Shown here: positions 4,024-64,000 of the stretch, piece by piece
How the letters are laid out: each line of letters begins with the position of its first letter
How positions within the stretch are numbered: position 1 is the stretch's first letter
Assembly: GCA_017514975.1 (NCBI GenBank)
Contig: JAFWIF010000014.1
Location: forward strand, 52,070 to 116,069
Direction: 5' to 3'
DNA: 64,000 nucleotides
From: Candidatus Saccharimonadota bacterium
GTDB lineage: Bacteria; Patescibacteriota; Saccharimonadia; Saccharimonadales; Saccharimonadaceae
Position numbers and translations under genes: made by a program
Notes under the pieces: generated by a model
Told to the model about the DNA's origin: nothing
The model's input: only the letters and a program-made list of their open reading frames with translations
The model's database searches: none

Positions 4024-5037
4024 ATGGCAACAACGAAAGCCAAGACGGCCAAGAAGTCAGTCGCGAAAAAGCCAAAAGCTCGTGCGACGGAGAAGTCGAA
4101 AACTTCAGCAAAAACTGTCGAAGCCAAAACAGTCAAAAAAGAAAAGGTGGAAGCAAAGGTAACCGAAACAAAGACGAAAGTCGTTTCAGCAAAGGCGACT
4201 AAAGTAAGTCCGGTAAAAAAATTCTTTGCACGAAAGGGCGATCCGAACGAAAATATTATCACGATTTTTAAAGACACAAAAATCATCGGCGCTTTGATTG
4301 CAGAAATCATTGGTACCGCGGTGATTGCAATGATTGCGTTGACACTGGGTCTCTTTAACCCGCTGTATATTATTTTTGCGTATCTCGGTATTACGCTAGC
4401 AACTTTTGCATTATCGGGCGCACATCTTAATCCAATTATCAGCGCGGGGATGGCGGCGAGCCGACGCATTTCTCTAATTCGAGCGATTTTATACATTATT
4501 GCTCAGGTTGTCGGATCGTTTCTTGGATTCTTGCTTATCAATGCGTTCTTTAAAGCTGGCACTGGCGCAACGGCGGCCGAAGACGGCAGCTCAGCAAGCT
4601 TACCAACTCTCACTGCTCTATTTACAGCCGGCGAAGGCGATGATGCAGGGCTAAATAAATTGTTCTGGCCGATTGTCATGATTGAATTTATCGGAGCAAT
4701 CATACTCGGCTTCTTCTATGCGCGCGCGCTAAACTTTAAACGCAGTGCGTTCACTTTTGCAGCAACCGTAGCAACCGGTGTGTTTGTCGCGATGTTGTTT
4801 GCAGTAGTAATCACAAATACCTATCTAGGATTACAAGACAATACTTTTGTATTGAACCCAGCAGTCAGTACTGTTTACGGACTCTTCCCGTCAAGCGCAG
4901 AAGGTTTTGATGGACTAATGAGCGCGCTTTGGCCAATGCTCGTTGCGTATGTGATTTTCCCGATTATCGGCGGAATCTTGGGCTTCTACCTTTCGGATTT
5001 TGCAGCGCAACTATCCGAACAGGAGACAACCGAATAA
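4024..5037 (+). CDS. MIP/aquaporin-family channel with a Lys/Ala/Thr-rich N-terminal tail
   Basis: ATG at 4024 is preceded by AAAGGAGGAG; the track start at 3919 has no RBS. SGAHLNPIISAG and LNPAVS half-helix motifs are present, with six TM segments. Confidence 0.75.
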   Translation: MATTKAKTAKKSVAKKPKARATEKSKTSAKTVEAKTVKKEKVEAKVTETKTKVVSAKATKVSPVKKFFARKGDPNENIITIFKDTKIIGALIAEIIGTAVIAMIALTLGLFNPLYIIFAYLGITLATFALSGAHLNPIISAGMAASRRISLIRAILYIIAQVVGSFLGFLLINAFFKAGTGATAAEDGSSASLPTLTALFTAGEGDDAGLNKLFWPIVMIEFIGAIILGFFYARALNFKRSAFTFAATVATGVFVAMLFAVVITNTYLGLQDNTFVLNPAVSTVYGLFPSSAEGFDGLMSALWPMLVAYVIFPIIGGILGFYLSDFAAQLSEQETTE

Positions 5038-5057
5038 ATCTATTATAGCAACAAGGA

Positions 5058-5087
5058 AAGCACCTAGCGATTTGCTAGGTGCTTTTT
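5058..5087. terminator. Stem-loop terminator between the convergent MIP gene and tsf
   Basis: AAAGCACCTAGC-gattt-GCTAGGTGCTTT is followed by a T-run on the plus strand and is A-flanked on the other side. Confidence 0.6.
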
Positions 5088-5111
5088 GAATGATTGCCTA
5101 AATTGGTAGAC

Positions 5112-5750
5112 TTATTCAGTCACGCCAAGTTCGATGCGCTTAAATTGCTTGATCGTAATGTTTTCGCCGGTTTTGGCGATAGCTTCTTTGATTAGATCGG
5201 AGACATTCTTGCTGTCGTCAAAGACATATGGCTGTGCCATAAGGACACGATCGGAGAATTTCTTAGCGATCTTTGACTTGACGATGTCGTCTTTTTTGTC
5301 GGCAGGCTCTTTACCCGTTAAGCTAGCTGCGGCTTCTTTTTCGGCTTCCGCGTAAATGTCATCAGGGATATCCTCGTATCGAAGCCATTGTGGGTTCATG
5401 CTGGCAACTTGGATGGCGACTTTATGCGCCAAATCCTTAAATTCATCAGTCTTAGCAACGAATGAGGTTTCGCAGTTTACTTCAACGATAGCGGCGATGC
5501 GACCATCATGGACGTAAGCATCAACAACACCTTCACGAGTTTCGCGATCGCCACGCTTTTCAGCTTTCGTTAAACCTTTCTTGCGCATCTCAGAAAGCGC
5601 CTTGTCGAAATCCCCTTTAGCTTCGACGAGAGCTTTTTTCGCATCGGTTAGGCCGACGCCTGAAAGTTCTTTAAGCTTTTTAATTAGTTCTACAGTAATT
5701 TCTTTCGCTTCATTAGCGACTTCTTTGGCAGTTTTTTCGGTTTTTGCCAT
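5112..5750 (-). CDS. tsf: Elongation factor Ts (short form)
   Basis: N-terminal UBA-like segment ELIKKLKELSGVGLTDAKKALVEAKGDFDKA, a core EVNCETSFVAKTDEF, and a position directly downstream of rpsB. Confidence 0.9.
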   Translation of the reverse strand: MAKTEKTAKEVANEAKEITVELIKKLKELSGVGLTDAKKALVEAKGDFDKALSEMRKKGLTKAEKRGDRETREGVVDAYVHDGRIAAIVEVNCETSFVAKTDEFKDLAHKVAIQVASMNPQWLRYEDIPDDIYAEAEKEAAASLTGKEPADKKDDIVKSKIAKKFSDRVLMAQPYVFDDSKNVSDLIKEAIAKTGENITIKQFKRIELGVTE

Positions 5751-5789
5751 TTTTGCCTCCTTTTATAAGTCTATTTTACTAAATTTTTA

Positions 5790-6500
5790 CTAATCTTGAG
5801 CTTTTTTGGCTTTTTGCGACTTGCCTGCTTTGATGGCCTCGGCAAAATAACCAAAAATTAATTCAACAGCCTTAATCGCGTCATCATTGGCGGGGATAGG
5901 ATAATCGACGGCGCTCGGGTCGCTATTCGTGTCGGTAATAGCAAAGACAGGAATATTGAGACTTTTAGCCTCTTTGATAGCGTTCTTGTCTTGAATCGTG
6001 TCAGCTACAATCAGAGCAGCCGGCTGTTCGGTCATATCTTTGATGCCACCATAACGCTCGTTGAGAAGATCGATTTCTTCTTGGTAGCGTTGCACTTCGA
6101 GCTTGTTGTAGCGTTTTTCGAGTTCCCCGCTAGCCATACGGCGTTCGAGGTCTTTGAGTTTGCGAATCTGTTTATTGATTGTTTCGACGTTAGTAAGCAT
6201 ACCGCCAATCCAGCGAACAGACACATAAGGCATCTCGACTGATTCAGCGGTCGCTTTGACGACAGGCTTGAGTTGTTTTTTGGTGCCAACGAAAAGAACC
6301 TTCTTGCCTTTTGCGGCTAAATCCGCAATAACCGGAAGTGCCGTATCGAGAGCGTCGACGGTTTTCTCGAGATTAATAATGTGAGCGCCTTCGCGCTTGC
6401 TGTGAATATACGGTGCCATTTTTGGATGCCAACGGCTAGTTTTGTGGCCAAAATGCGCACCAGACACCAAAAGGTCTTTGATGTTAATCTGTACAGGCAT
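5790..6500 (-). CDS. rpsB: 30S ribosomal protein S2
   Basis: LLVSGAHFGHKTSRWHPKMAPYI and WIGGMLTN signatures. Confidence 0.95.
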   Translation of the reverse strand: MPVQINIKDLLVSGAHFGHKTSRWHPKMAPYIHSKREGAHIINLEKTVDALDTALPVIADLAAKGKKVLFVGTKKQLKPVVKATAESVEMPYVSVRWIGGMLTNVETINKQIRKLKDLERRMASGELEKRYNKLEVQRYQEEIDLLNERYGGIKDMTEQPAALIVADTIQDKNAIKEAKSLNIPVFAITDTNSDPSAVDYPIPANDDAIKAVELIFGYFAEAIKAGKSQKAKKAQD

Positions 6501-6621
6501 AGTTACCTTTCTCCTTTAGTTCATCGAATATATTGTTATTTCCGACAAACTTGCTTCGTTAAATTAATAATACATTTATTATTATATCATATTTTTCAGA
6601 AATGTGGAAAAATGTAAACAG

Positions 6622-9096
6622 CTACTCGCGCGGCATATCGGTGGCGCGAATCATCTCCGGAGTAATGTGGAGAGTGGTACCAGAGGATACGTAGCCGGAC
6701 AGTACGGCGCGGGCCACGATATTCTCCACGGTGCTCTGTACGACTCTGCGCATTGGTCTCGCACCGAGCTTCGGGTCGTAGCCACGCTCAACCAAAATCG
6801 CCCGCGCCTCATCGTCGAGAGCAACGGATATTCTCTGAGGTTCGAGGGTTTTGTTGACGCTGATTAAGATTAGATTGACGATCTGTAGCAGATCCTCTTT
6901 TGATAGAGGCTTAAAAATACAGATTTCGTCAAAACGGTTGATAAATTCAGGCTTAAATTCGTTGTTCTGAATCAATTCGTCTAGCAGTGATTCTTTGATT
7001 TCTGATAAATTTAAGCCTTGATCGATGTAATTGCGAATTTGGTTTGCACCAGCATTACTTGTCGCAATCACGATAGCATCACGAAAACTTACCTCGCGAT
7101 TTTTGACGTCGCGCAAGATACCTTCATCGAGTAGCTGTAAAAGCGTTGTTAGAACCTGAGGATGAGCCTTTTCGATCTCGTCTAGCAAAACAACGGAAAA
7201 CGGCTGCTTCATGACTTGGGCGGTAAGGCTGAGCGGATCGGTAGCGCCGTCCGCAATGAGACGATTTACGCTGCCCGCATCGACAAATTCGTTCAGATCG
7301 AGGCGAACAATCTGGCTTTCGCCATGAAAATAAACTTCACTTAACGCTTTTGCGAGCTCTGTTTTGCCGACGCCAGTTGGGCCGAGGAACAAGAATGTAC
7401 CAATCGGACGTTTTTCGTTTCGCACGCCCGCAGCCGCTCTTCGCAAAGCATCGCTCACCGCCGAGACGGCATACTCTTGATCGACCATGCGTTGATGGAT
7501 GAGCGTCTCAAGATTGAGGAGTCGATAGCGCTCTTCGTCGTCTTGCGAAGCGCGCATTTTTACGCCATAAGTCTTCTCTATGGCACGTTGTACAGATTCG
7601 GCAGTTATAAAACCGTGCTCTTCGGCAAAGCCGGCGGCCGACTCAAGCAAGTTAAGGGCGCGCCCTGGCATCTCCAAATCGTGGATGTATTTCTCGCTTA
7701 AACGATAAGATTCGGACAAAGCCCAGTAGGTATAGGTGACTTTGTGCTGGTATTCGAGATAGGGGACACGATCCTGCATAACACGCATCGTATCGTTGGC
7801 GTCGGCTGGACTAACAACAATCTTATTGAGAGTATTGGCAAGTGAACTGTTTTTTGTGGATATTTCGAGGAAACGCTGCTGATCCATTGTCATAATGACG
7901 CGGAGTCGTCCAGCTTCTAGGATAGGCAAAAGTATATTTGCAATATCAACAGAGCCAACTCCTTCCTCAAAGAACAACTGCGCCTCATCGAGCCAGATAA
8001 TTATATTTTTGGCGGCAAAAGCTTCTCCGAGAATATGCGACACGAGCCCCTCGAGTTCGCCGCGACGCCCCGCGGCAGCGATCAGGGCAGCAGCATCAAG
8101 CTTGAAGACTTGACGGAATTTGAGCCTTGACGATATTTTTCTATCGGCGTCGAGAATAGCGCTGGCAAAATGGTGGACGGCCGTCGAACGACCAGTACCA
8201 GCCGCGCCGACGAGGGCGACATTTTGGCGTCCGCCAGATGAAAAAATCTGAATCATTTGATCGACAATTTCTGCAGTCGACGAGAGACTGGGTTGCACAG
8301 AAGCCGCAACGCCGTCAGAGCGAGAAATATTTTGACCAAACTTTTGGAGTAGCGGCGTGTAGCCGAACATCAAATCGCGCCCAAAACCGCCCGTATGACG
8401 AGGTTTCTTGAGGCTTTTAACAATTCCGTGTAAATAGTTGTACCAAACAACCCCGCCGCGTAATTCTGACTGCTCAAGCTTAAGGCGGCGCAATAATTGC
8501 TCGCACGACGGATGAGTCTCGACAAGAGCAAGCGACAAAATGGCGCCCGTGATTTGTTCTGAGTCGGTGGCATGGCGAATTTCAAGTGCTTTCTCGAAAA
8601 TCGCCTCAAGGTTTTCGTCGGCGTCCGCGACAATGAAATCAAGAAACTGCGCCGTGATACCATAACGAGCAGCAAGAAAGATGCCGCTAGGTGTTTCAAA
8701 GACAATTTTTGCGAGTTTTTGAGGAGTGGGGTGGCGGTCGAGGCGCGATAGAACTTGGTGAGATAGTAAGTCGTTAATATTGTCGCTGTCAAGGTGGCGC
8801 ACAAACATATCTTTAAGATCTAGATGGTACCAAAAGAGTAGCATCATCACGCAAACAGCGACAGCGAGAAGAAGCCAAGCAAGCGGCTCGCGCAACCAGA
8901 ATAGAATCCCTGACAACACAAAAGCCGCTATCATACAAACAATCAACATAATACGGACGAGCTGAGGTCGCAACACGCTGGCAAAACGCGCCGTGCGAGC
9001 ACGCGTATGGTTGTAGTCGAACATAATCATGGTAAATGAACCCCCATAAAGAAGCAAACCAAGCAACAAACTGGCGCCAAAGGCAAAAATGGCCAT
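6622..9096 (-). CDS. Membrane-anchored Clp/Hsp100-type double AAA+ ATPase with a degenerate first Walker A (alternative start at 9030)
   Basis: N-terminal TM helices. D1 has GAAGTGRS plus IIIWLDEA. D2 has GPTGVGKTELAKAL plus VVLLDEIEKAHP, and there is a C-terminal D2-small segment GARPMRRVVQ. Confidence 0.7.
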   Translation of the reverse strand: MAIFAFGASLLLGLLLYGGSFTMIMFDYNHTRARTARFASVLRPQLVRIMLIVCMIAAFVLSGILFWLREPLAWLLLAVAVCVMMLLFWYHLDLKDMFVRHLDSDNINDLLSHQVLSRLDRHPTPQKLAKIVFETPSGIFLAARYGITAQFLDFIVADADENLEAIFEKALEIRHATDSEQITGAILSLALVETHPSCEQLLRRLKLEQSELRGGVVWYNYLHGIVKSLKKPRHTGGFGRDLMFGYTPLLQKFGQNISRSDGVAASVQPSLSSTAEIVDQMIQIFSSGGRQNVALVGAAGTGRSTAVHHFASAILDADRKISSRLKFRQVFKLDAAALIAAAGRRGELEGLVSHILGEAFAAKNIIIWLDEAQLFFEEGVGSVDIANILLPILEAGRLRVIMTMDQQRFLEISTKNSSLANTLNKIVVSPADANDTMRVMQDRVPYLEYQHKVTYTYWALSESYRLSEKYIHDLEMPGRALNLLESAAGFAEEHGFITAESVQRAIEKTYGVKMRASQDDEERYRLLNLETLIHQRMVDQEYAVSAVSDALRRAAAGVRNEKRPIGTFLFLGPTGVGKTELAKALSEVYFHGESQIVRLDLNEFVDAGSVNRLIADGATDPLSLTAQVMKQPFSVVLLDEIEKAHPQVLTTLLQLLDEGILRDVKNREVSFRDAIVIATSNAGANQIRNYIDQGLNLSEIKESLLDELIQNNEFKPEFINRFDEICIFKPLSKEDLLQIVNLILISVNKTLEPQRISVALDDEARAILVERGYDPKLGARPMRRVVQSTVENIVARAVLSGYVSSGTTLHITPEMIRATDMPRE

Positions 9097-56610: not shown

Positions 56611-56781
56611 GAACATCTCTCCACGCTTCCAAAACGCTTATGCTTAGTGTTTTCGAACTGATGTAATAACTTCAAGTTAATTGCAGTGCAGAGTTCTGCG
56701 CCTTTCTCCAGCGAGAGGGGGTAGCCCCTCATATTTTATGCGCAGATTCTACATAAAGGCTTATAGCTTTGCTGGAGCCGT

Positions 56782-56840
56782 AGAGGCTTAAAACAATGAC
56801 AATGAAGAAAATAAAAGAAATGCAATGTCAATGGTATAAT
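56782..56840 (+). repeat. 59-nt direct repeat, copy 1 (extended -10 promoter-like, or the start of a small ORF)
   Basis: AGAGGCTTAAAACAATGACAATGAAGAAAATAAAAGAAATGCAATGTCAATGGTATAAT differs from copy 2 at 3 positions. Confidence 0.8.
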
Positions 56841-56990
56841 TATAATGCGTGGCGACACGATGTTCTATAAGAAAGGCGTTACAGATCCGGATTACTGTGT
56901 ACTAAAATTCACCGCAACAAACGGCCGATATTTATTGTGACCTAAAAACCGAAGACTTCAAAGTGTAATCAAAAAAACGAAAGGGAATAA

Positions 56991-57458
56991 ATGTACAAAA
57001 AAGAATTCATGGAAATCGCAGTAGATGAAGCAAAGGACGGCATCCTCAATCATGATGGCGGACCCTTTGGCGCGGTAATAGTAAGAGATGGCGAAGTAAT
57101 TGCGTCGGGGCACAACCGAGTGCTTTCTTTCAACGATTCGACTTGCCATGGCGAAATTGACGCAATACGAAAAGCGGAGAGTAAACTTGGAACTTATGAC
57201 CTCTCGGGCTGCGAGCTTTATACTACAGGGGAGCCTTGCCCGATGTGCCTTGCAGCAATTTTATGGGCAAATGTCGAAAAGGTATATTATGGATGTAGGC
57301 TGAGCGATAATGAAGAAATTGGATTTCGCGATGCTAAGTTTGATAAGATGATGGGCGGAAGATCCAACTTGTCTGAAGGCTTTATGGAAGAAAAAGACCG
57401 AGACCTATGCCTCAGCATATTTGAAGAATACAAAAAAATGGAAGCAAAAAGGTACTAA
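56991..57458 (+). CDS. CMP/dCMP-type zinc deaminase (guanine deaminase/TadA-like nucleoside deaminase)
   Basis: CHGEIDAIRKA (HxE) and EPCPMCLAAI (PCxxC) zinc motifs. Confidence 0.8.
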   Translation: MYKKEFMEIAVDEAKDGILNHDGGPFGAVIVRDGEVIASGHNRVLSFNDSTCHGEIDAIRKAESKLGTYDLSGCELYTTGEPCPMCLAAILWANVEKVYYGCRLSDNEEIGFRDAKFDKMMGGRSNLSEGFMEEKDRDLCLSIFEEYKKMEAKRY

Positions 57459-57476
57459 TAAAAATAAGCGCCCCGC

Positions 57477-57535
57477 AGAGGCTTAAAACAATGGCAATGA
57501 AGAAAATAAAAGAAAAACAATGTCAATGGTATAAT
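57477..57535 (+). repeat. 59-nt direct repeat, copy 2
   Basis: AGAGGCTTAAAACAATGGCAATGAAGAAAATAAAAGAAAAACAATGTCAATGGTATAAT. Confidence 0.8.
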
Positions 57536-57579
57536 AGTAACTATAATATTGAGCAATTATATCTTTAAAGGAGACCTCT

Positions 57580-57840
57580 ATGGCATTACAGCTAACCGAC
57601 GAATGGGATAAAGTATTCGAAAAAAGCGACATAGTAAACCACAGAAAGGCTTCTTTCAAAAACCATTTCGGAATCGAAATAGCGGCAGATTTATACGAAC
57701 CAAAAGAAAGAAACGGTAAGTTGCCGGCAATTGCTATATCTGGACCATACGGCGCAGTTAAAGAACAGTCATCTGGCCTCTACGCTCAAACCTTAGCGGA
57801 ACGCGGTTTTTTGACTCTAGCTTTCGATCCTCGAAATTGA
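57580..57840 (+). pseudogene. N-terminal fragment (86 aa) of an alpha/beta hydrolase
   Basis: AAAGGAG RBS. The sequence ...LPAIAISGPYGAVKEQSSGLYAQTLAERGFLTLAFDPRN ends at a stop where this family normally continues for more than 200 aa. The convergent gene begins 68 nt later. Confidence 0.5.
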
Positions 57841-57907: not shown

Positions 57908-58885
57908 TTATTTGGTCTCTGTCCTAACTTCTTGATGCAACTTCGCAAATTTCTTTGATTTGTTGTCGAGTTCGTCAAACTCTTTTTCGGTGAGTTTTTC
58001 TTTCATCCCTGATTCGATGAAGTTGCGCAGTACCCCCACCAAGATGAATGGTCTTACGAAGGTGGAGTGGATGATGAGCCACATGATTACACCGCCGATT
58101 CCGGCTGCGATTAATTGTAAGTCGTTTGGATTGGTTAAGAATTCCATGCTCCCGTCTTCGGCCGCTAGCTCTGTGAACTCGTTTGCTAGTGCAGTAAATG
58201 CTTCTGGGAACGCTAGCGTGATGAGATAGAATAGGCCGAAGAATACCCCGCCAACCACTAATAGAGAAAGGGTTCCCAGACCAAAGATTCTTCCTAAATT
58301 CTTTGCCAAAGTTTTGCCATTTTTAAAGAATAACACCCCGCCCTCAAGTGTAGCTTTAGTTGACTTTTCATCTTTTCTATAGAACACCCAACCCAAACAA
58401 CAATCACAAAGATATCCTACTACGACATTGATAGCACTTGAGATTATGCTACCAATCGTGCTACCAGTGTCGCCACCAATGGCGTTGCCGACTGCCGTGA
58501 TTGCTTTGCCGATCTCGTTAAAGATTCCCTTGATGACGTTTGTGACTGCATAGTAGGCTGCTACCGTTAAGAATCGTTCCTTGACGATTTTTTTACCTTC
58601 ATTGTACACGTCGTCTGGTAGCTTCCCGTCCGCGATTGCGCGTGTCATCATGGCGATTTGCCCGGCTTTAAAGATGTATGAGAAGAAATGCGATACGATA
58701 GCGACAATTATTATGCCAATTATAATGCCTATAGCTAAGCCAATTAATCCGTTGTTGGCTGCTTTATCTGCCAAGAAGAAGCCTGCCGATGAGACTAATA
58801 TTATTATGATGAATGCAAAGACATTCCATAGGAAACGTCTTAGTGAGAAAGTTAGTGTTTTTTTATAGATTGCTTTATTATCCAT
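57908..58885 (-). CDS. Polytopic membrane protein, unknown function
   Basis: 325 aa with several TMs. There is a Gly/Ile-rich helix GLIGLAIGIIIGIIIVAIV and a CDCC motif. Confidence 0.5.
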   Translation of the reverse strand: MDNKAIYKKTLTFSLRRFLWNVFAFIIIILVSSAGFFLADKAANNGLIGLAIGIIIGIIIVAIVSHFFSYIFKAGQIAMMTRAIADGKLPDDVYNEGKKIVKERFLTVAAYYAVTNVIKGIFNEIGKAITAVGNAIGGDTGSTIGSIISSAINVVVGYLCDCCLGWVFYRKDEKSTKATLEGGVLFFKNGKTLAKNLGRIFGLGTLSLLVVGGVFFGLFYLITLAFPEAFTALANEFTELAAEDGSMEFLTNPNDLQLIAAGIGGVIMWLIIHSTFVRPFILVGVLRNFIESGMKEKLTEKEFDELDNKSKKFAKLHQEVRTETK

Positions 58886-59151
58886 AATACCTTACCCTAA
58901 ATTATGTATTATTATACCACATCATAATAATCAAAATAAATCGTTTATACTGGTAGTGAAGAAACTTGTCAAACCGTCACCACTCATAAACGAGTAGATA
59001 AGGCCATAATTAATATATACTAAACTAAGGACACTGAAGAGAATTCGAGGAAGGGGTCGTTTTTCGTATTTGCTAAGGAACTTTGCGGACAAAATGGATG
59101 AAAAATATTTTGCGAAAGTCAAAATCATCGTACTCGATTTATAGTAAAATT

Positions 59152-59186
59152 TAATAAATAAAAGAAGTCCCATTGGGACTTCTTTT
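59152..59186 (-). terminator. Rho-independent terminator of the 59221..59622 gene
   Basis: The minus strand reads GAAGTCCC-AAT-GGGACTTC followed by TTTTATTTATT. Confidence 0.65.
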
Positions 59187-59220
59187 ATTCCTATGGTGAG
59201 GGGGCAATAAGATGTACTAA

Positions 59221-59622
59221 CTATTTATTCTCTTTCCTCACTTGAGCAAGAAAATAAAGACCTATTGTATCAATAATGAAGTCGAGCGACAAGAGGCCCG
59301 TAACGCCAGTTTTTGTAGTAAAGAAAGTTACAATAGCGCTGACAATACCCAAAATCAACAAAACTCCATAAAGTGTACCGTCGCTTTTCTTAGCTGCAAC
59401 TCTTCCTGCAAGCCAGAAATACCACAAGTTGAGCAGAACAGTTACTCCGGCTGTAATACCAAGTTTTATCATTCCTTCATTACCACCTAGACTTTCTTCC
59501 AAACCGTTGCGAAGTTCTGGCATGGCGAAACAAATAATTGTACCGATAGTATAAAATGCAGCAACAATAATATAAATCCAACTAAATGATTTCATTGCTT
59601 CATACGATGATTTTTTTGACAT
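59221..59622 (-). CDS. Four-TM membrane protein, unknown function
   Basis: 133 aa, with AGGAG 7 nt before the ATG and a hydrophobic profile. Confidence 0.5.
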   Translation of the reverse strand: MSKKSSYEAMKSFSWIYIIVAAFYTIGTIICFAMPELRNGLEESLGGNEGMIKLGITAGVTVLLNLWYFWLAGRVAAKKSDGTLYGVLLILGIVSAIVTFFTTKTGVTGLLSLDFIIDTIGLYFLAQVRKENK

Positions 59623-60036
59623 ATATATTGCTCCTTAATTGAATATATTGTACTTTAAGTATATCACGATACCGTGAAATATCAAATACTTGTGCTTTAA
59701 TCTTGAATAAAAAATAAAAATCTAAAGGTCTTATTATAGTGGTGAGCGTTGCAGGGAGATTCTTGATGCAGCAGACGACAGAACGCGCCGTATCTGTGCG
59801 GTAGTTGATTGGATTTGGGAGCACCCGGAATACAACCCCAAGACGAAGGTTATCCCGAAGAAGGATTACCCTGTTTTAGTAGATGTTGCATTCTAATCAG
59901 GAATCACAAGGAGATGAACATTGAACCAATGTAAAGGAATAACTATTCCTGCAATGTCATTGAAAGCACCTCGTAGTTAAGCATAAGCTATTTGACTAAC
60001 ACGCGTAATTATTGCGTAATATGATATAATATAGTC

Positions 60037-63009
60037 ATGAAACTGAAAGAGCTTTTTAATAAACTTGCTCAAAGGACCCATTCGGACAATGAGGTCAATC
60101 TTCTTTCATTCTCTCCCCAAAAAACGCAAAAACCTAACCAATATATACTTAGACAAATAAAGGCCGCTACTAGCATAAAAAACCGACGAGATAATAATAT
60201 AGCACTTGATGGAGATTATGGCGTCGGAAAAAGTAGTATATTATACAGCCTAAAGACAGATTTCAGATGGCGTATTGTTAATCGCCCAAAAACCATTTCA
60301 TTCCTTTCGTTTTTGGCAGATAAAAATGATAACGAAAAGAATCAGGACGAAGAGCATAAATCAAAAAATGAAAATGCCAAAAGAGATAGGATAGATAGTA
60401 AATATTTACAAAGTGAAATAATAAGGCAACTATATTATGGAGAACGAGCTAATAAGCTTAAAGGGAGCGGCTATAAGAGGATTGGCAAACATTATCTTTT
60501 TGGGTCTCTTTTTATAAGTATGATTCTAGGGACATTCCTATTGCTCCAAATCTATAACATTAATGCTATTACCTTTATTAACGCGCTCATTGAGTGCGCC
60601 GAAAGAGGCATTAATCCTGGCATGCCCAACATTTATGCCTTAGTGTGGATCATAATAGTCATAATACTTACGTTGTTGATTAATGCAGTTTTCAAACTCA
60701 TAGCGAATGGAGATATCAAGAGCATATCCGCCAAAGATCTCTCGATAGAATTATCCGATTCAGAACCGGATTTCAACCAGCTTATTGACTTATTGATCTA
60801 CTATTTTCGCAAAACCAAGCGACGCGTTATTATATTTGAAGATCTTGATCGTCTCCAAAATCCAAAAATCTTCGAAGAATTACGCCAACTCAATTTTACG
60901 CTCAACAACAGAATTAAACCTTTTGGGACTATCAAGTTTATTTATGCCACTAGAAGCGATTTGTTCATCGCGAATGCAACACAAGATACTGGTATAGAAA
61001 AAATTAATACTAAGGTGTTCGACCTAATTATTCCGGTTATTCCATTTCTAACAAAAGTTAATTTCAGCAATGTCCTCCAAGACGAATGCAAAACAATTGG
61101 CCTAGATTGGAAAATAAATGGAATTGAAAACATACTAAGCCGCCATACTTCCGACATGAGAGTCGTAAAAGCGGTTCTTAACAATATACTCGTCTATAAA
61201 AATACCTTCAATTTGCAAACTGATGACGATTATAAGAATGCTGCGGCACTATCTGTCCTTCGCGTCTTTGCACCAAATGACTACATGAGATTATCGACTG
61301 GAGATAGCTTATTAGATTTTACGAGAGAACATTGTTTGATTAAAAAAGAAGCGAGTATTAAACAGGCACGAGAAAGACATACGCCGGAATATAAGATTAA
61401 GCAAAACTCCAAAACTATATGGACGGCAATCAGAAATATAGGTAATCAGTTACCACAGAATGCTAATCCTCAGCATATCGTAATAAACAATGAGCAAATT
61501 ACAGCAAATAACGACTCACTAATAAAGATATATAAAACTGAGCAAAATTCAAATATTCAAGTCTACTGGGGAAACTACGGGCAAAGAAATTACAACACGC
61601 AGCAAATCAGAGACATCATCGCGCCATATACAAAAGAAAACCCCTCAGGCACTCCAATTGAAAAAGAAATTAAAGAATTGGCAGAAAGAGATTGTTTTAC
61701 ATTTTATGACGATTCAATTGCTTTAGCAAACGAAGGATCTGATAAGAAAACGCAAGCGATCGTAAAAGAGCTATTGGAGAACGCTTTCGTAACGGAAGGC
61801 TACACTAGGTTTATAACACAAGCAACCAACATGGATAAGGATGTAGATCAGGCCTTACGGTATATTTTTGGATATATACGTAGCAATAAAAGAAATGACG
61901 AGTATGTGCTTAGCCCCGAAACAGCGACTGAAATAATGACCCGAATAGACAATACAGATTTACTATCGGCCGGAATGTACAACTATAACTTATTCGACTT
62001 TATAATCAGAAACATCGATCAATACTCAAACAAACTAGACCGTATATTGCAAAATGCAAAAGTCGAGCTTAGTTCATTTATGGACTTTTTTGACAATTAT
62101 TGCCACAAGTATAAGAGCGAACTGGAATCCGAAAGCTGCACTGGATTAAATGAACCCGTCATAATGGATCTTTCAAAAACAATTCCCCCAGTATTTTTAA
62201 CTATGAAACTGGCTAAGATGTACCCAGGGGAGCTGATGGCAAAAATATCGCAATCTACCCTAAAAGACACAAACGCAAAAGAAGTAATTTATAATATTGC
62301 CGTCATTAACCTTGACGATCCGTTAAGTTTAGTGTTAGAAGAACACGACCGTAGCTTCCTAACATATTATGCTGATACAATCATAAAAAATGAGAATGGA
62401 AAAGAAAATCTATTCAAATTATTTATAGCTAACGATATTCCAATCAACGATCTGAAAACCTTTAATGTATCAAGCGATGACGTCAAAAACTATTTAGATA
62501 AAATACTAATCGTAATTAACGAGCAAAACCTGGCTATACTTGAAGACGATGTCTTGATAAATTATATATCTACGCACCAGCTAACGGCAGACGGCTTTAA
62601 AGCAATAATGAATAGTGACAAGGCCAACGTAAAACATCATGTTGTAAAGAATATAGAAAAGGTTGTAGCGAACGATAGTCTGCCAGGACGCATACAAGAA
62701 GCCGCAGCATACATTTACGAAAAGAAAATATCACTTACTCAAGACGAGCTATTTCAATATGCTGGAAAAACTAATACGAAAAATCTAATTGGAATATCCA
62801 TAATTCCAGACCTAACAAGAGAAGAAATCGTAGCCGTTATGGCTAAATGCGACGATGGCAATCTTAGTAAAATTCAAATTAAAAACTCACTAATTAAACT
62901 TAGCTCAAATAAAAGTAACGAAATATTCGCCGAAAAGCTTGAATCATTAGGTCTAGTAAGGCGCCAAAATAGCCGCAATCATAAAATAATCAGACTCCAA
63001 GTATTATAA
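60037..63009 (+). CDS. KAP/YobI-type P-loop NTPase with two TM helices inserted between Walker A and Walker B
   Basis: Walker A is GDYGVGKS (res 59-66). TM helices lie at about res 152-172 and 199-221. Walker B is VIIFEDLDR (res 264-272). A roughly 700-aa alpha-helical C-terminal region follows. Confidence 0.7.
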   Translation: MKLKELFNKLAQRTHSDNEVNLLSFSPQKTQKPNQYILRQIKAATSIKNRRDNNIALDGDYGVGKSSILYSLKTDFRWRIVNRPKTISFLSFLADKNDNEKNQDEEHKSKNENAKRDRIDSKYLQSEIIRQLYYGERANKLKGSGYKRIGKHYLFGSLFISMILGTFLLLQIYNINAITFINALIECAERGINPGMPNIYALVWIIIVIILTLLINAVFKLIANGDIKSISAKDLSIELSDSEPDFNQLIDLLIYYFRKTKRRVIIFEDLDRLQNPKIFEELRQLNFTLNNRIKPFGTIKFIYATRSDLFIANATQDTGIEKINTKVFDLIIPVIPFLTKVNFSNVLQDECKTIGLDWKINGIENILSRHTSDMRVVKAVLNNILVYKNTFNLQTDDDYKNAAALSVLRVFAPNDYMRLSTGDSLLDFTREHCLIKKEASIKQARERHTPEYKIKQNSKTIWTAIRNIGNQLPQNANPQHIVINNEQITANNDSLIKIYKTEQNSNIQVYWGNYGQRNYNTQQIRDIIAPYTKENPSGTPIEKEIKELAERDCFTFYDDSIALANEGSDKKTQAIVKELLENAFVTEGYTRFITQATNMDKDVDQALRYIFGYIRSNKRNDEYVLSPETATEIMTRIDNTDLLSAGMYNYNLFDFIIRNIDQYSNKLDRILQNAKVELSSFMDFFDNYCHKYKSELESESCTGLNEPVIMDLSKTIPPVFLTMKLAKMYPGELMAKISQSTLKDTNAKEVIYNIAVINLDDPLSLVLEEHDRSFLTYYADTIIKNENGKENLFKLFIANDIPINDLKTFNVSSDDVKNYLDKILIVINEQNLAILEDDVLINYISTHQLTADGFKAIMNSDKANVKHHVVKNIEKVVANDSLPGRIQEAAAYIYEKKISLTQDELFQYAGKTNTKNLIGISIIPDLTREEIVAVMAKCDDGNLSKIQIKNSLIKLSSNKSNEIFAEKLESLGLVRRQNSRNHKIIRLQVL

Positions 63010-63060
63010 TTAATACAGAACACCGCTTAATGGCGCAACCTCTAAAGAAACGGGGTTATT

Positions 63061-63525
63061 ATGGCAAAACGCCACCCATTCAAGAAAGTAAAACCCGGCG
63101 AACCGATACCGGTTACCGCTCGTGAGCTCGAAAGTTTCATGCTCGAACATAACGGCAGATTCAATTCGCGCGATTACGACAAGTTCGAACGTATGGAGCT
63201 AATGGAGTCGCCCGTCCGCGACGCAATCCACGAATTAAAGACTTATTCCCTAGAAACACTAGCACAGCGCTTTGATATACGCCTTTTTGGGCGCGGTAAG
63301 CGCGTTTTTGCAAGGTTAGATGCCGAAGACGACAAATGGTACTACTTTTCCCTCGCATACATTCCACGCGCGCTAAACAACCGCGACGTGAATGACGCGA
63401 TGGTTCAGATGTTTTTCATAGGTAAGTGGCGCGTTTGCAAGCTTTCGCTCTGGGCCGAGCCGGAAGATATTAACCATTACGGCGACGATTCTAACAAAAC
63501 ATTCTATCATTTAGTCAATAGATAG
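63061..63525 (+). CDS. Hypothetical protein (154 aa) downstream of the KAP NTPase
   Basis: The ORF shows coding-like composition. I recognised no motif. Confidence 0.4.
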   Translation: MAKRHPFKKVKPGEPIPVTARELESFMLEHNGRFNSRDYDKFERMELMESPVRDAIHELKTYSLETLAQRFDIRLFGRGKRVFARLDAEDDKWYYFSLAYIPRALNNRDVNDAMVQMFFIGKWRVCKLSLWAEPEDINHYGDDSNKTFYHLVNR

Positions 63526-63707
63526 CATCCACTTGGACACAATTGGGTTTTGAAAGTTATTGTGCAGAAAAAGAGGTGGGATTTTTTCTTGACACGAAAC
63601 GGTGAAAATTATGAATTTTCGGAAAAACACTACAATATTATACAAAATTGTTGCGTTTTGCGATATTATGATATTAGAAAAAGCTTATGCTAAAAGGAAA
63701 AACAAAC

Positions 63708-64000
63708 ATGGCAAAATTTAAAACAGAAGACGAAGTTCGCGACATGGACAAAATAGCTCTCGGATTTAATACCCAGGAGCAACATGTTAAGCAAGGTACT
63801 GGTCAACTTACGACATTCAATCAATTAGGGTTTGTCGGCATTAACGATAAACCTGATGGTTGGTATATTCCTGAGAACAAAAACGCGGTTGCCATTTTGC
63901 TTGAGACGAAAAATAGCAATGAAGATATTGAATCGCAAAAATGCGTAAATGAGATCAAAAAGAACTGCACTGTCCTCATAAATAACGGCTATTCTAAAGT
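63708..64000 (+). CDS. 5-prime part of a PD-(D/E)XK nuclease-fold gene (restriction-enzyme-like N-terminus); it continues beyond the window end and is not in the ORF track
   Basis: My own translation gives MAKFKTEDEVRDMDKIALGFNTQEQHVKQGTGQLTTFNQLGFVGINDKPDGWYIPENKNAVAILLETKNSNEDIE..., with a PD...ExK arrangement (KPDGW...LLETK). The RBS is AAAGGAAA. Confidence 0.4.
   Translation, partial: MAKFKTEDEVRDMDKIALGFNTQEQHVKQGTGQLTTFNQLGFVGINDKPDGWYIPENKNAVAILLETKNSNEDIESQKCVNEIKKNCTVLINNGYSK

Follow-up and report, generated by a model that had tools for sequence, protein, structure and literature searches.

A candidate antiviral membrane NTPase of the YobI family, related to Tmn, in a tRNA-Lys-linked defence island of Saccharibacteria

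Architecture of the NTPase

The window analysed here is a stretch of 64,000 nucleotides from a Candidatus Saccharimonadota bacterium (contig JAFWIF010000014.1, positions 52,070 to 116,069 of the forward strand). Close to its right end lies a gene for a transmembrane P-loop NTPase, referred to below as the NTPase, which we compare with Tmn, a YobI-family NTPase that carries two transmembrane (TM) helices inside the P-loop domain as the family signature and acts as a single-gene defence (Wu et al. 2026 preprint, PMC13001434). The gene and its parts are as follows.

60037..63009 (+): complete gene of the YobI-family (Tmn-like) transmembrane P-loop NTPase, 990 amino acids (open reading frame listing, Pfam PF20693, PADLOC Tmn, hhalign)
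60172..61314 (+): YobI-ATPase domain with membrane insert, residues 46-426 (Pfam profile match; identity to Escherichia coli Tmn)
60211..60234 (+): Walker A motif GDYGVGKS, residues 59-66; G64 and K65 correspond to the essential Tmn residues G66 and K67 (mutagenesis in PMC13001434)
60490..60555 (+): TM helix 1, residues 152-173 (hydropathy, AlphaFold2 helix, E. coli Tmn counterpart at 157-177)
60556..60630 (+): predicted extracytoplasmic loop, residues 174-198 (topology inferred from charge distribution)
60631..60702 (+): TM helix 2, residues 199-222 (hydropathy, AlphaFold2, E. coli Tmn alignment)
60826..60852 (+): Walker B motif VIIFEDLDR, residues 264-272; D269 and R272 correspond to the essential Tmn residues D276 and R279
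61315..62106 (+): counterpart of the Tmn proximal arm by homology, residues ~427-690 (hhalign, AlphaFold2, entropy)
62107..63006 (+): C-terminal array of about 20 short helices, clade-specific, residues ~690-950, closed by a small alpha/beta end at 951-990 (AlphaFold2; no PADLOC or BLAST similarity to Tmn)

The original prediction, made from the nucleotide letters, had described a 990-residue reading frame with Walker A at residues 59-66, Walker B at residues 264-272 and two TM helices between them, and this architecture is borne out by the open reading frame listing, hydropathy and AlphaFold2 (AF2). The frame starts with ATG, and its length of 2973 nt at 35% GC far exceeds chance. At Kyte-Doolittle values above 1.6, just two segments stand out in the whole protein (~152-175 and ~195-222), both between the Walker motifs; AF2 models them as helices at 152-173 and 199-225, and the positions of this hydrophobic insert are equivalent in E. 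coli Tmn and in members of the NTPase family. Both Walker motifs are invariant throughout the family alignment. Because the TM flanks are rich in Lys and Arg and the 25-residue inter-helix loop is slightly acidic, the charge distribution fits an N-in/C-in topology, which would place both Walker motifs in the cytoplasm.

In all, 259 homologues of the NTPase were detected. Across 121 family members the NTPase core is the most conserved part, and the most variable block is residues 181-210 (weighted entropy 2.16 bits), which takes in a large part of the predicted outer loop (174-198) as well as the beginning of TM helix 2, followed by residues 421-570 as the second most variable stretch. The gene is AT-rich, as had been noted from the sequence: it has 35.5% GC where the first 50 kb have 46.2%, and its GC content at third codon positions (GC3) is 0.35, core genes being at about 0.5.

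Assignment to the YobI family

The NTPase almost certainly belongs to the YobI family. The Pfam profile YobI-ATPase (PF20693, a family of P-loop NTPases resembling YobI, with Bacillus subtilis YobI as namesake) aligns at positions 8-362 of its 363 with residues 46-426 of the NTPase and scores 217.8 bits, far above the cut-off of 27. This is a full-domain match in which the likeness runs via the profile and not via YobI itself, and the profile describes the N-terminal domain alone, being silent on the arms. The PADLOC Tmn model also matches (E=7.6e-29, 98.2 bits), well below the published threshold of E < 1e-10. In contrast, Pfam KAP_NTPase (PF07693) gave no match to the NTPase at E<=1, which rules out strict KAP membership; of the KAP/YobI assignment originally proposed, the YobI part stands and the strict KAP part does not. 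The literature likewise treats YobI as a family phylogenetically distinct from KAP. In a distant clade member, P0254, KAP_NTPase reaches 24.4 bits, barely above its cut-off of 20, a weak profile score that shows relatedness to KAP, not membership. The PADLOC PifA model touched the N-terminal domain only (E=0.0099), and the NCBIfam scan of the NTPase yielded nothing informative.

Two other groups of defence NTPases invite comparison. The KAP family, which includes the F-plasmid protein PifA and the enterococcal EF_KAP defence proteins (PMC13552941), consists, like the NTPase, of membrane-associated P-loop NTPases linked to phage defence, and the C-terminal regions of KAP proteins, of unknown fold, are needed for activity. 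The antiviral Avs/STAND NTPases follow a similar logic, combining an NTPase and a helical-repeat sensor of a phage protein in one large polypeptide. However, they are of another NTPase class and occur as soluble tetramers with separate effector domains, and a sequence relationship between them and the NTPase was not detected.

Comparison with Tmn

Tmn assembles into a decamer in the membrane, with helical arms termed proximal and distal, the distal arm being solenoid-like, and senses the phage T2 protein RIIB; it raises ATP turnover and exports Mg2+, leading to plasmolysis (PMC13001434). As reference we used the E. coli plasmid protein WP_001683567.1 (1273 aa, annotated 'anti-phage transmembrane ATPase'), which matches the full PADLOC Tmn model with 2059 bits over positions 1-1273 and whose residues agree with all 11 positions mutated in PMC13001434. 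Residues 54-392 of the NTPase align with this protein at 28% identity (E=2e-25), TM insert included. The NTPase-domain positions at which single or double mutants abolish defence by Tmn are G66/K67, Y262, D276/R279, N297, K325/F326 and R374 (PMC13001434). Eight of these nine are kept in the NTPase as G64, K65, Y255, D269, R272, N290, K326 and R375, and at the ninth F326 is replaced conservatively by V327.

Profile-profile comparison extends the relationship beyond the NTPase domain. With hhalign, a profile of the window family and its distant ~1000-aa relatives (alignment A4) matched a profile of five plasmid Tmn proteins (A3) with a probability of 100% and E=2.4e-53 over 633 columns, family residues 23-686 corresponding to Tmn residues 36-761, and the invariant family residue Y589 aligns with the invariant Tmn residue Y628. 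As the alignment runs to ~686, homology to Tmn spans the proximal-arm region. On sequence grounds, the NTPase is a divergent, shorter relative of Tmn. It shares with Tmn the YobI-type P-loop NTPase, the two TM helices between Walker A and Walker B and a C-terminus that, as predicted for the NTPase, is alpha-helical, and both are encoded by a single gene without a conserved operon that sits among defence genes and mobile DNA. The two differ in length, the NTPase being 283 aa shorter with a distal arm of ~300 aa compared with ~510 aa in Tmn, and in host, which is here a bacterium of the candidate phyla radiation (CPR). Published Tmn proteins come to 99% from Pseudomonadota, Bacillota and Bacteroidota, with one archaeal genome in addition and CPR bacteria not among them (PMC13001434), and a tblastn search of plasmids with the N-terminal 438 aa of the NTPase returned 628 records, enterobacterial for the most part.

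The C-terminal region

AF2, run on a 19-sequence alignment, modelled the NTPase with a mean pLDDT of 67.7. Residues ~430-540 (pLDDT ~80) comprise helices and a small beta-rich domain at 478-520, and residues ~650-990 (pLDDT 85-93) about 20 short helices followed by a small alpha/beta unit. As modelled, the C-terminal region resembles the arm plan described for Tmn, and its helical array is presumed to be a trigger-sensing distal arm. An exhaustive HMMER search of 1.84 billion representative proteins, with residues 427-990 as query, found 29 relatives only. All ten of those scanned carry an N-terminal YobI-ATPase domain, including every full-length one tested (~970-1010 aa), and these match PADLOC Tmn solely through that domain. 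By these searches, the last ~300 aa are specific to a rare clade of ~1000-aa YobI proteins. A sequence profile of the NTPase compared with the PDB returned nothing meaningful.

Host and distribution

The host, a Saccharibacterium, has Candidatus Nanosyncoccus as a close relative. Relatives of the NTPase with a named taxon are Saccharibacteria (TM7, CPR) without exception: copies are 91% identical in a metagenome-assembled genome of Candidatus Nanosyncoccus (contig L012), 53% identical in another Nanosyncoccus genome and in a sheep-gut Saccharibacterium, and 46% identical in Candidatus Nanosynbacter. With one genome taken per species across 185,579 species, a motif-based scan detected the family in 6 genomes only, all Saccharibacteria, a count that is a lower bound because the scan was limited by its patterns. 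The identical protein occurs on several independent metagenome contigs, and oral metagenomes hold more than 100 clusters of the family at 45-47% identity, one sequence being present on 125 contigs. On contig L013 (9956-12932) a 61%-identical homologue is split into overlapping open reading frames of 721 and 287 aa, either a frameshifted pseudogene or an assembly error. A phage or prophage origin was considered and rejected, as no relatives were found in IMG/VR or among GenBank phages and PHROGs gave no match.

The tRNA-Lys island

The metagenome contig L001, identical to the window, extends past the window's end and completes the right side of the locus, where the NTPase gene is followed by the 154-aa gene listed below, a 608-aa restriction endonuclease-methyltransferase (REase-MTase), a 356-aa type II specificity subunit, a small ribbon-helix-helix (RHH) gene and a tRNA gene.

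63061..63525 (+): conserved 154-aa island 'anchor' gene, 48% GC
63687-64000 (+), continuing on L001 at 4150-7027: open reading frame cut by the window end, the N-terminus (PDG...ETK motif) of the 608-aa REase-MTase, and after it the specificity subunit
L001 7598-7674 (-), ~3.1 kb past the window end: tRNA-Lys(CTT), with its 3' end towards the island

The 608-aa protein fuses a PD-(D/E)xK nuclease with an N6-adenine methyltransferase (PADLOC REase_MTase_IIG) and constitutes together with the specificity subunit a BcgI-like type IIB/IIG restriction-modification system. The 154-aa gene and the restriction-like nuclease gene reported downstream of the NTPase are both present, with a correction to each: the former is a separate conserved landmark, and the latter is the N-terminus of this fusion. 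An exact 16-nt copy of the tRNA-Lys 3' end lies ~130 nt away (L001 7455-7470) as an att-like scar, and an identical tRNA-Lys is located ~5.8 kb downstream of the Nanosynbacter YobI genes (contigs L006, L010 and L011).

Gene neighbours differ among the window, L005, L006, L009 and L012, and defence genes are present in every context examined. On L005 the NTPase homologue is accompanied by GmrSD, Imm32, DUF4268 and type I restriction-modification genes, on L012 by Fic and type I restriction-modification genes and on L009 by a C5/N6 methyltransferase fusion; in Nanosynbacter, MazG-like, GIY-YIG-SLFN helicase and ThsB-TIR genes lie between RNase J and the tRNA. The defence-island context that had been predicted is found throughout, with restriction-modification and Abi genes beside the NTPase gene wherever it was detected. 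A block of ~3.9 kb (59732..63619, +), holding an upstream element, the NTPase gene and the 154-aa gene, is ~91-92% identical at the nucleotide level in L005 and L012 (blastn), and its flanks differ. Direct evidence on presence and absence in relatives, a check that the original prediction had suggested, comes from contigs L019-L021: at the same locus, these carry Fic, SLFN_AlbA_2 and Abi_alpha in place of the NTPase, between a 133-aa membrane-protein gene on the left (91% identical) and the 154-aa gene on the right (85%). The NTPase gene is exchangeable cargo in a tRNA-Lys-linked defence island.

Proposed function and alternatives

We consider a role in defence likely, and propose that the NTPase is probably a single-polypeptide, membrane-integrated antiviral sensor-effector of the YobI/Tmn family. 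A specifically Tmn-like mechanism, drawn by analogy, is possible though somewhat short of likely. Based on what is described for E. coli Tmn (PMC13001434), it would comprise the following hypothetical steps, in which (i) the NTPase oligomerises in the membrane, its NTPase cores forming a cytoplasmic hub; (ii) the variable helical arms bind an early phage protein; (iii) binding leads to a higher ATP turnover, possibly coupled to the export of ions (Mg2+); and (iv) the ensuing energy and osmotic collapse halts phage replication. The adjacent restriction-modification systems would constitute a second layer of defence, possibly acting in synergy. The shorter distal arm implies a trigger specificity unlike that of Tmn.

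Several points weigh against this proposal. The Tmn mechanism is known from one preprint with a map at 11.6 Å (PMC13001434), and since AF2 confidence in the NTPase domain is low (pLDDT 30-60), whatever is said on the oligomeric state, a pore or ion export is pure analogy. No similarity to the Tmn arms is detectable in the last ~300 aa with PADLOC, BLASTP or hhalign, and a Foldseek search of the AF2 model against the PDB gave no match at E<=1e-3, the weak, non-significant top matches being solenoid proteins and AAA+ ATPases. Taken by itself, the C-terminal stretch of 552 aa did not match the PADLOC Tmn model, of which only about one third is covered: both matching stretches lie within the N-terminal 438 aa, the best at profile positions 260-423 of 1273. 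A Sinorhizobium homologue covers positions 26-684. The preprint admits proteins as Tmn at a hidden Markov model coverage of at least 50% (PMC13001434), and the NTPase lies below that value because its matches are confined to the NTPase third of the model, so that automated tools may not call it Tmn. The relation to Tmn raised in the original prediction stands by E-value and by the published single-gene defence function (PMC13001434), and fails on coverage. Finally, the first phage shown to directly target a CPR bacterium was reported in 2026, none having been isolated before (PMC13578794), and for this reason the threat that the NTPase would counter is poorly known.

The barely known phage biology of Saccharibacteria, to which as obligate epibionts the relatives of the NTPase belong, leaves some room for a non-phage conflict system, serving exclusion of plasmids or integrative elements, island addiction, or an interaction between episymbiont and host through the outer loop. 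Such a role would accord with the overlap between the inter-helix loop and the most variable block of the family, as well as with the position in a recombination-prone island beside a tRNA gene with an att-like scar. However, the characterised relatives are all antiphage, the neighbours are classical antiphage genes, and Pfam, PADLOC and NCBIfam scans detected no secretion or adhesion domains. We regard this alternative as unlikely.

A second alternative concerns the 154-aa gene, which begins 52 nt downstream of the NTPase gene and could encode a sensor, regulator or antitoxin in a two-gene system. The two genes lie next to each other in the same direction in the window and on L005, L008, L009 and L012, they share the ~3.9-kb block, and in a comparison of the window with L009 conservation is unusually high both in the final ~90 residues of the NTPase and in the 154-aa protein. 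Against a partnership, each gene occurs without the other: the 154-aa gene is found without a YobI gene, directly after Abi_alpha and near AbiTii, and the Nanosynbacter YobI genes lack the 154-aa gene and have a MazG-like gene downstream of them instead. Composition (48% versus 35.5% GC) and divergence are also discordant. On L009 the 154-aa gene is 94% identical and the NTPase 53%, whereas on L012 the 154-aa gene is 59% identical and disrupted and the NTPase 91% identical; at 90% identity the 154-aa protein falls into a cluster of 1646 member sequences and the NTPase into one of 61. We rejected the two-gene system as improbable, and conclude that the 154-aa gene is a conserved island landmark, not a partner of the NTPase.

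The 154-aa protein has no family match in Pfam, PADLOC, NCBIfam or PHROGs, and its AF2 model (pLDDT 57.7) is too poor for a fold search. Its family is mostly 80-95% identical and abundant in metagenomes, with many truncated copies. Within Saccharibacterial defence islands the gene takes a middle position, flanked upstream by Abi-type genes and downstream by restriction-modification systems, both of them variable, and on L005 a duplicate of the gene's 3' 168 nt follows an inserted DUF4268 gene.

A housekeeping function in Saccharibacteria, as a membrane ATPase or transporter whose gene lies near defence genes by chance, is very improbable for the NTPase. The frequency of the family in oral metagenomes and the Nanosynbacter homologue abutting the core RNase J gene would be in keeping with such a role, yet close relatives hold other cargo at the same locus, the L013 homologue is frameshifted, the composition is foreign to the genome and the family was found in only the 6 species-representative genomes. 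Alternative cargo on L019-L021 together with the frameshift on L013 indicates accessory hotspot cargo rather than a housekeeping gene. Both outcomes that the original prediction had named as fatal to it, a lack of YobI/KAP profile support and universal conservation in a housekeeping context, were looked for and neither was found. A decaying, non-functional relic of a past acquisition, as gene stubs in the surroundings and the L013 frameshift might suggest, is extremely improbable given the intact reading frame with all catalytic and family-invariant residues, the identical protein on independent contigs and a conserved promoter-like motif.

Significance

Saccharibacteria and the other CPR bacteria have small genomes (~0.8 Mb; longest contigs 780 kb), and beyond CRISPR and restriction-modification little of their antiviral repertoire has been charted. 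In this setting, Saccharibacteria keep, diversify and exchange a Tmn-like gene of 3 kb in a dedicated hotspot, which extends the Tmn/YobI family to a phylum missing from the published Tmn distribution. This suggests abortive or 'pause'-type membrane defences in cells that rely on their host for nucleotides. The protein itself is categorically nothing new; what emerges is a recently characterised defence family in CPR bacteria and a well-defined hotspot. The clade would escape the coverage rule behind the published Tmn set, and with its short distal arm it provides a compact natural variant in which the part played by Tmn arms in specificity can be studied. More CPR defence genes could be sought by using the tRNA-Lys island and its conserved anchor gene as bait.

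Upstream motif, repeated elements and gene remnants

The region to the left of the NTPase gene holds the following features.

60022..60030 (+): TGATATAAT, a promoter-like motif of the extended -10 type, 6 nt ahead of the ATG (conservation in alignment A2)
59738..59893 (+): gene remnant of 52 codons without a start codon, 49% GC, from a small DpnD/PcfM-like gene
57580..57840 (+): 86-aa N-terminal stub of a Peptidase_S15/alpha-beta hydrolase, full length (341 aa) at L009 6258-7283

No Shine-Dalgarno sequence precedes the NTPase ATG, and the TGATATAAT motif is kept upstream of orthologues with as little as 53% protein identity, which suggests an autonomous, possibly leaderless transcript. As a generic promoter and terminator scan showed no enrichment over shuffled sequences, the promoter reading is inferred from conservation alone. 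An extended -10 (TGGTATAAT) also ends a repeated intergenic element of ~110 nt, whose copies in the 64-kb window lie at 56760-56836, 57473-57531 and 59760-59967 (+), with no further copy there; more copies occur in related loci, always upstream of plus-strand island genes. A portable promoter is one possible role of this element, a junction for recombination between cassettes another. RNAalifold revealed no convincing conserved structure in it. Although it has the string GATTCGAAC, we rejected it as a tRNA fragment or att site, since ARAGORN found no tRNA and it does not match the flanking tRNA-Lys. An Rfam scan of 59000-64000 gave one sub-threshold chance match only, and short inverted repeats around the NTPase gene were likewise judged chance matches.

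The remnant-rich character of the region, also part of the original prediction, is confirmed by the two remnants listed. The fragment at 59738-59893 is homologous to the C-terminal part of a gene of 72 aa, which at its N-terminus is DpnD/PcfM-like (PF14207 in homologues). Further copies of the fragment are found on L005 (8530-8646 and 9703-9855), L009 (9687-9803), L012 (2057-2203), L017 (667-783 and 3056-3172) and L019 (5747-5965), in the same orientation and 150-500 nt upstream of unrelated cargo (YobI, DUF1706/TfoX, Fic and Abi_alpha). Further to the left, a 68-nt direct repeat (56778-56845 and 57473-57540, 91% identical) brackets a cytidine/dCMP deaminase gene (56991-57458) that weakly matches the PADLOC dCTP-deaminase defence model (E=1.3e-8), and because of this bracketing the deaminase gene looks like a cassette too.

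A broader and speculative reading, to which as a whole we assign a low probability, is that the NTPase is one cassette of an undescribed, integron-like array of defence cassettes at tRNA-Lys(CTT) in Saccharibacteria. The cargo of such an array would include unrelated defence genes (YobI/Tmn-like, Abi_alpha, AbiTii, Fic, DUF1706 and deaminase), each after a recurring ~110-250-nt element in the same orientation that has an extended -10 at its end, and the cassettes would be shuffled by recombination at the repeated elements and at the 154-aa anchor gene. As a separate point, the short-armed Saccharibacterial YobI clade might sense a class of trigger other than that of Tmn, possibly at the cell surface via its hypervariable outer loop.

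To the left of the hotspot lie genes for two predicted multi-pass membrane proteins of 325 aa (57908-58885, -) and 133 aa (59221-59622, -), which have no match in Pfam, PADLOC or PHROGs. These left-flank proteins are conserved in related contigs (69% in L009, 91% in L019). Just downstream of the minus-strand 133-aa gene, at 59157-59189, there is a perfect 16-bp palindrome (AATAAAAGAAGTCCCA / TGGGACTTCTTTTATT), which is probably a terminator hairpin.

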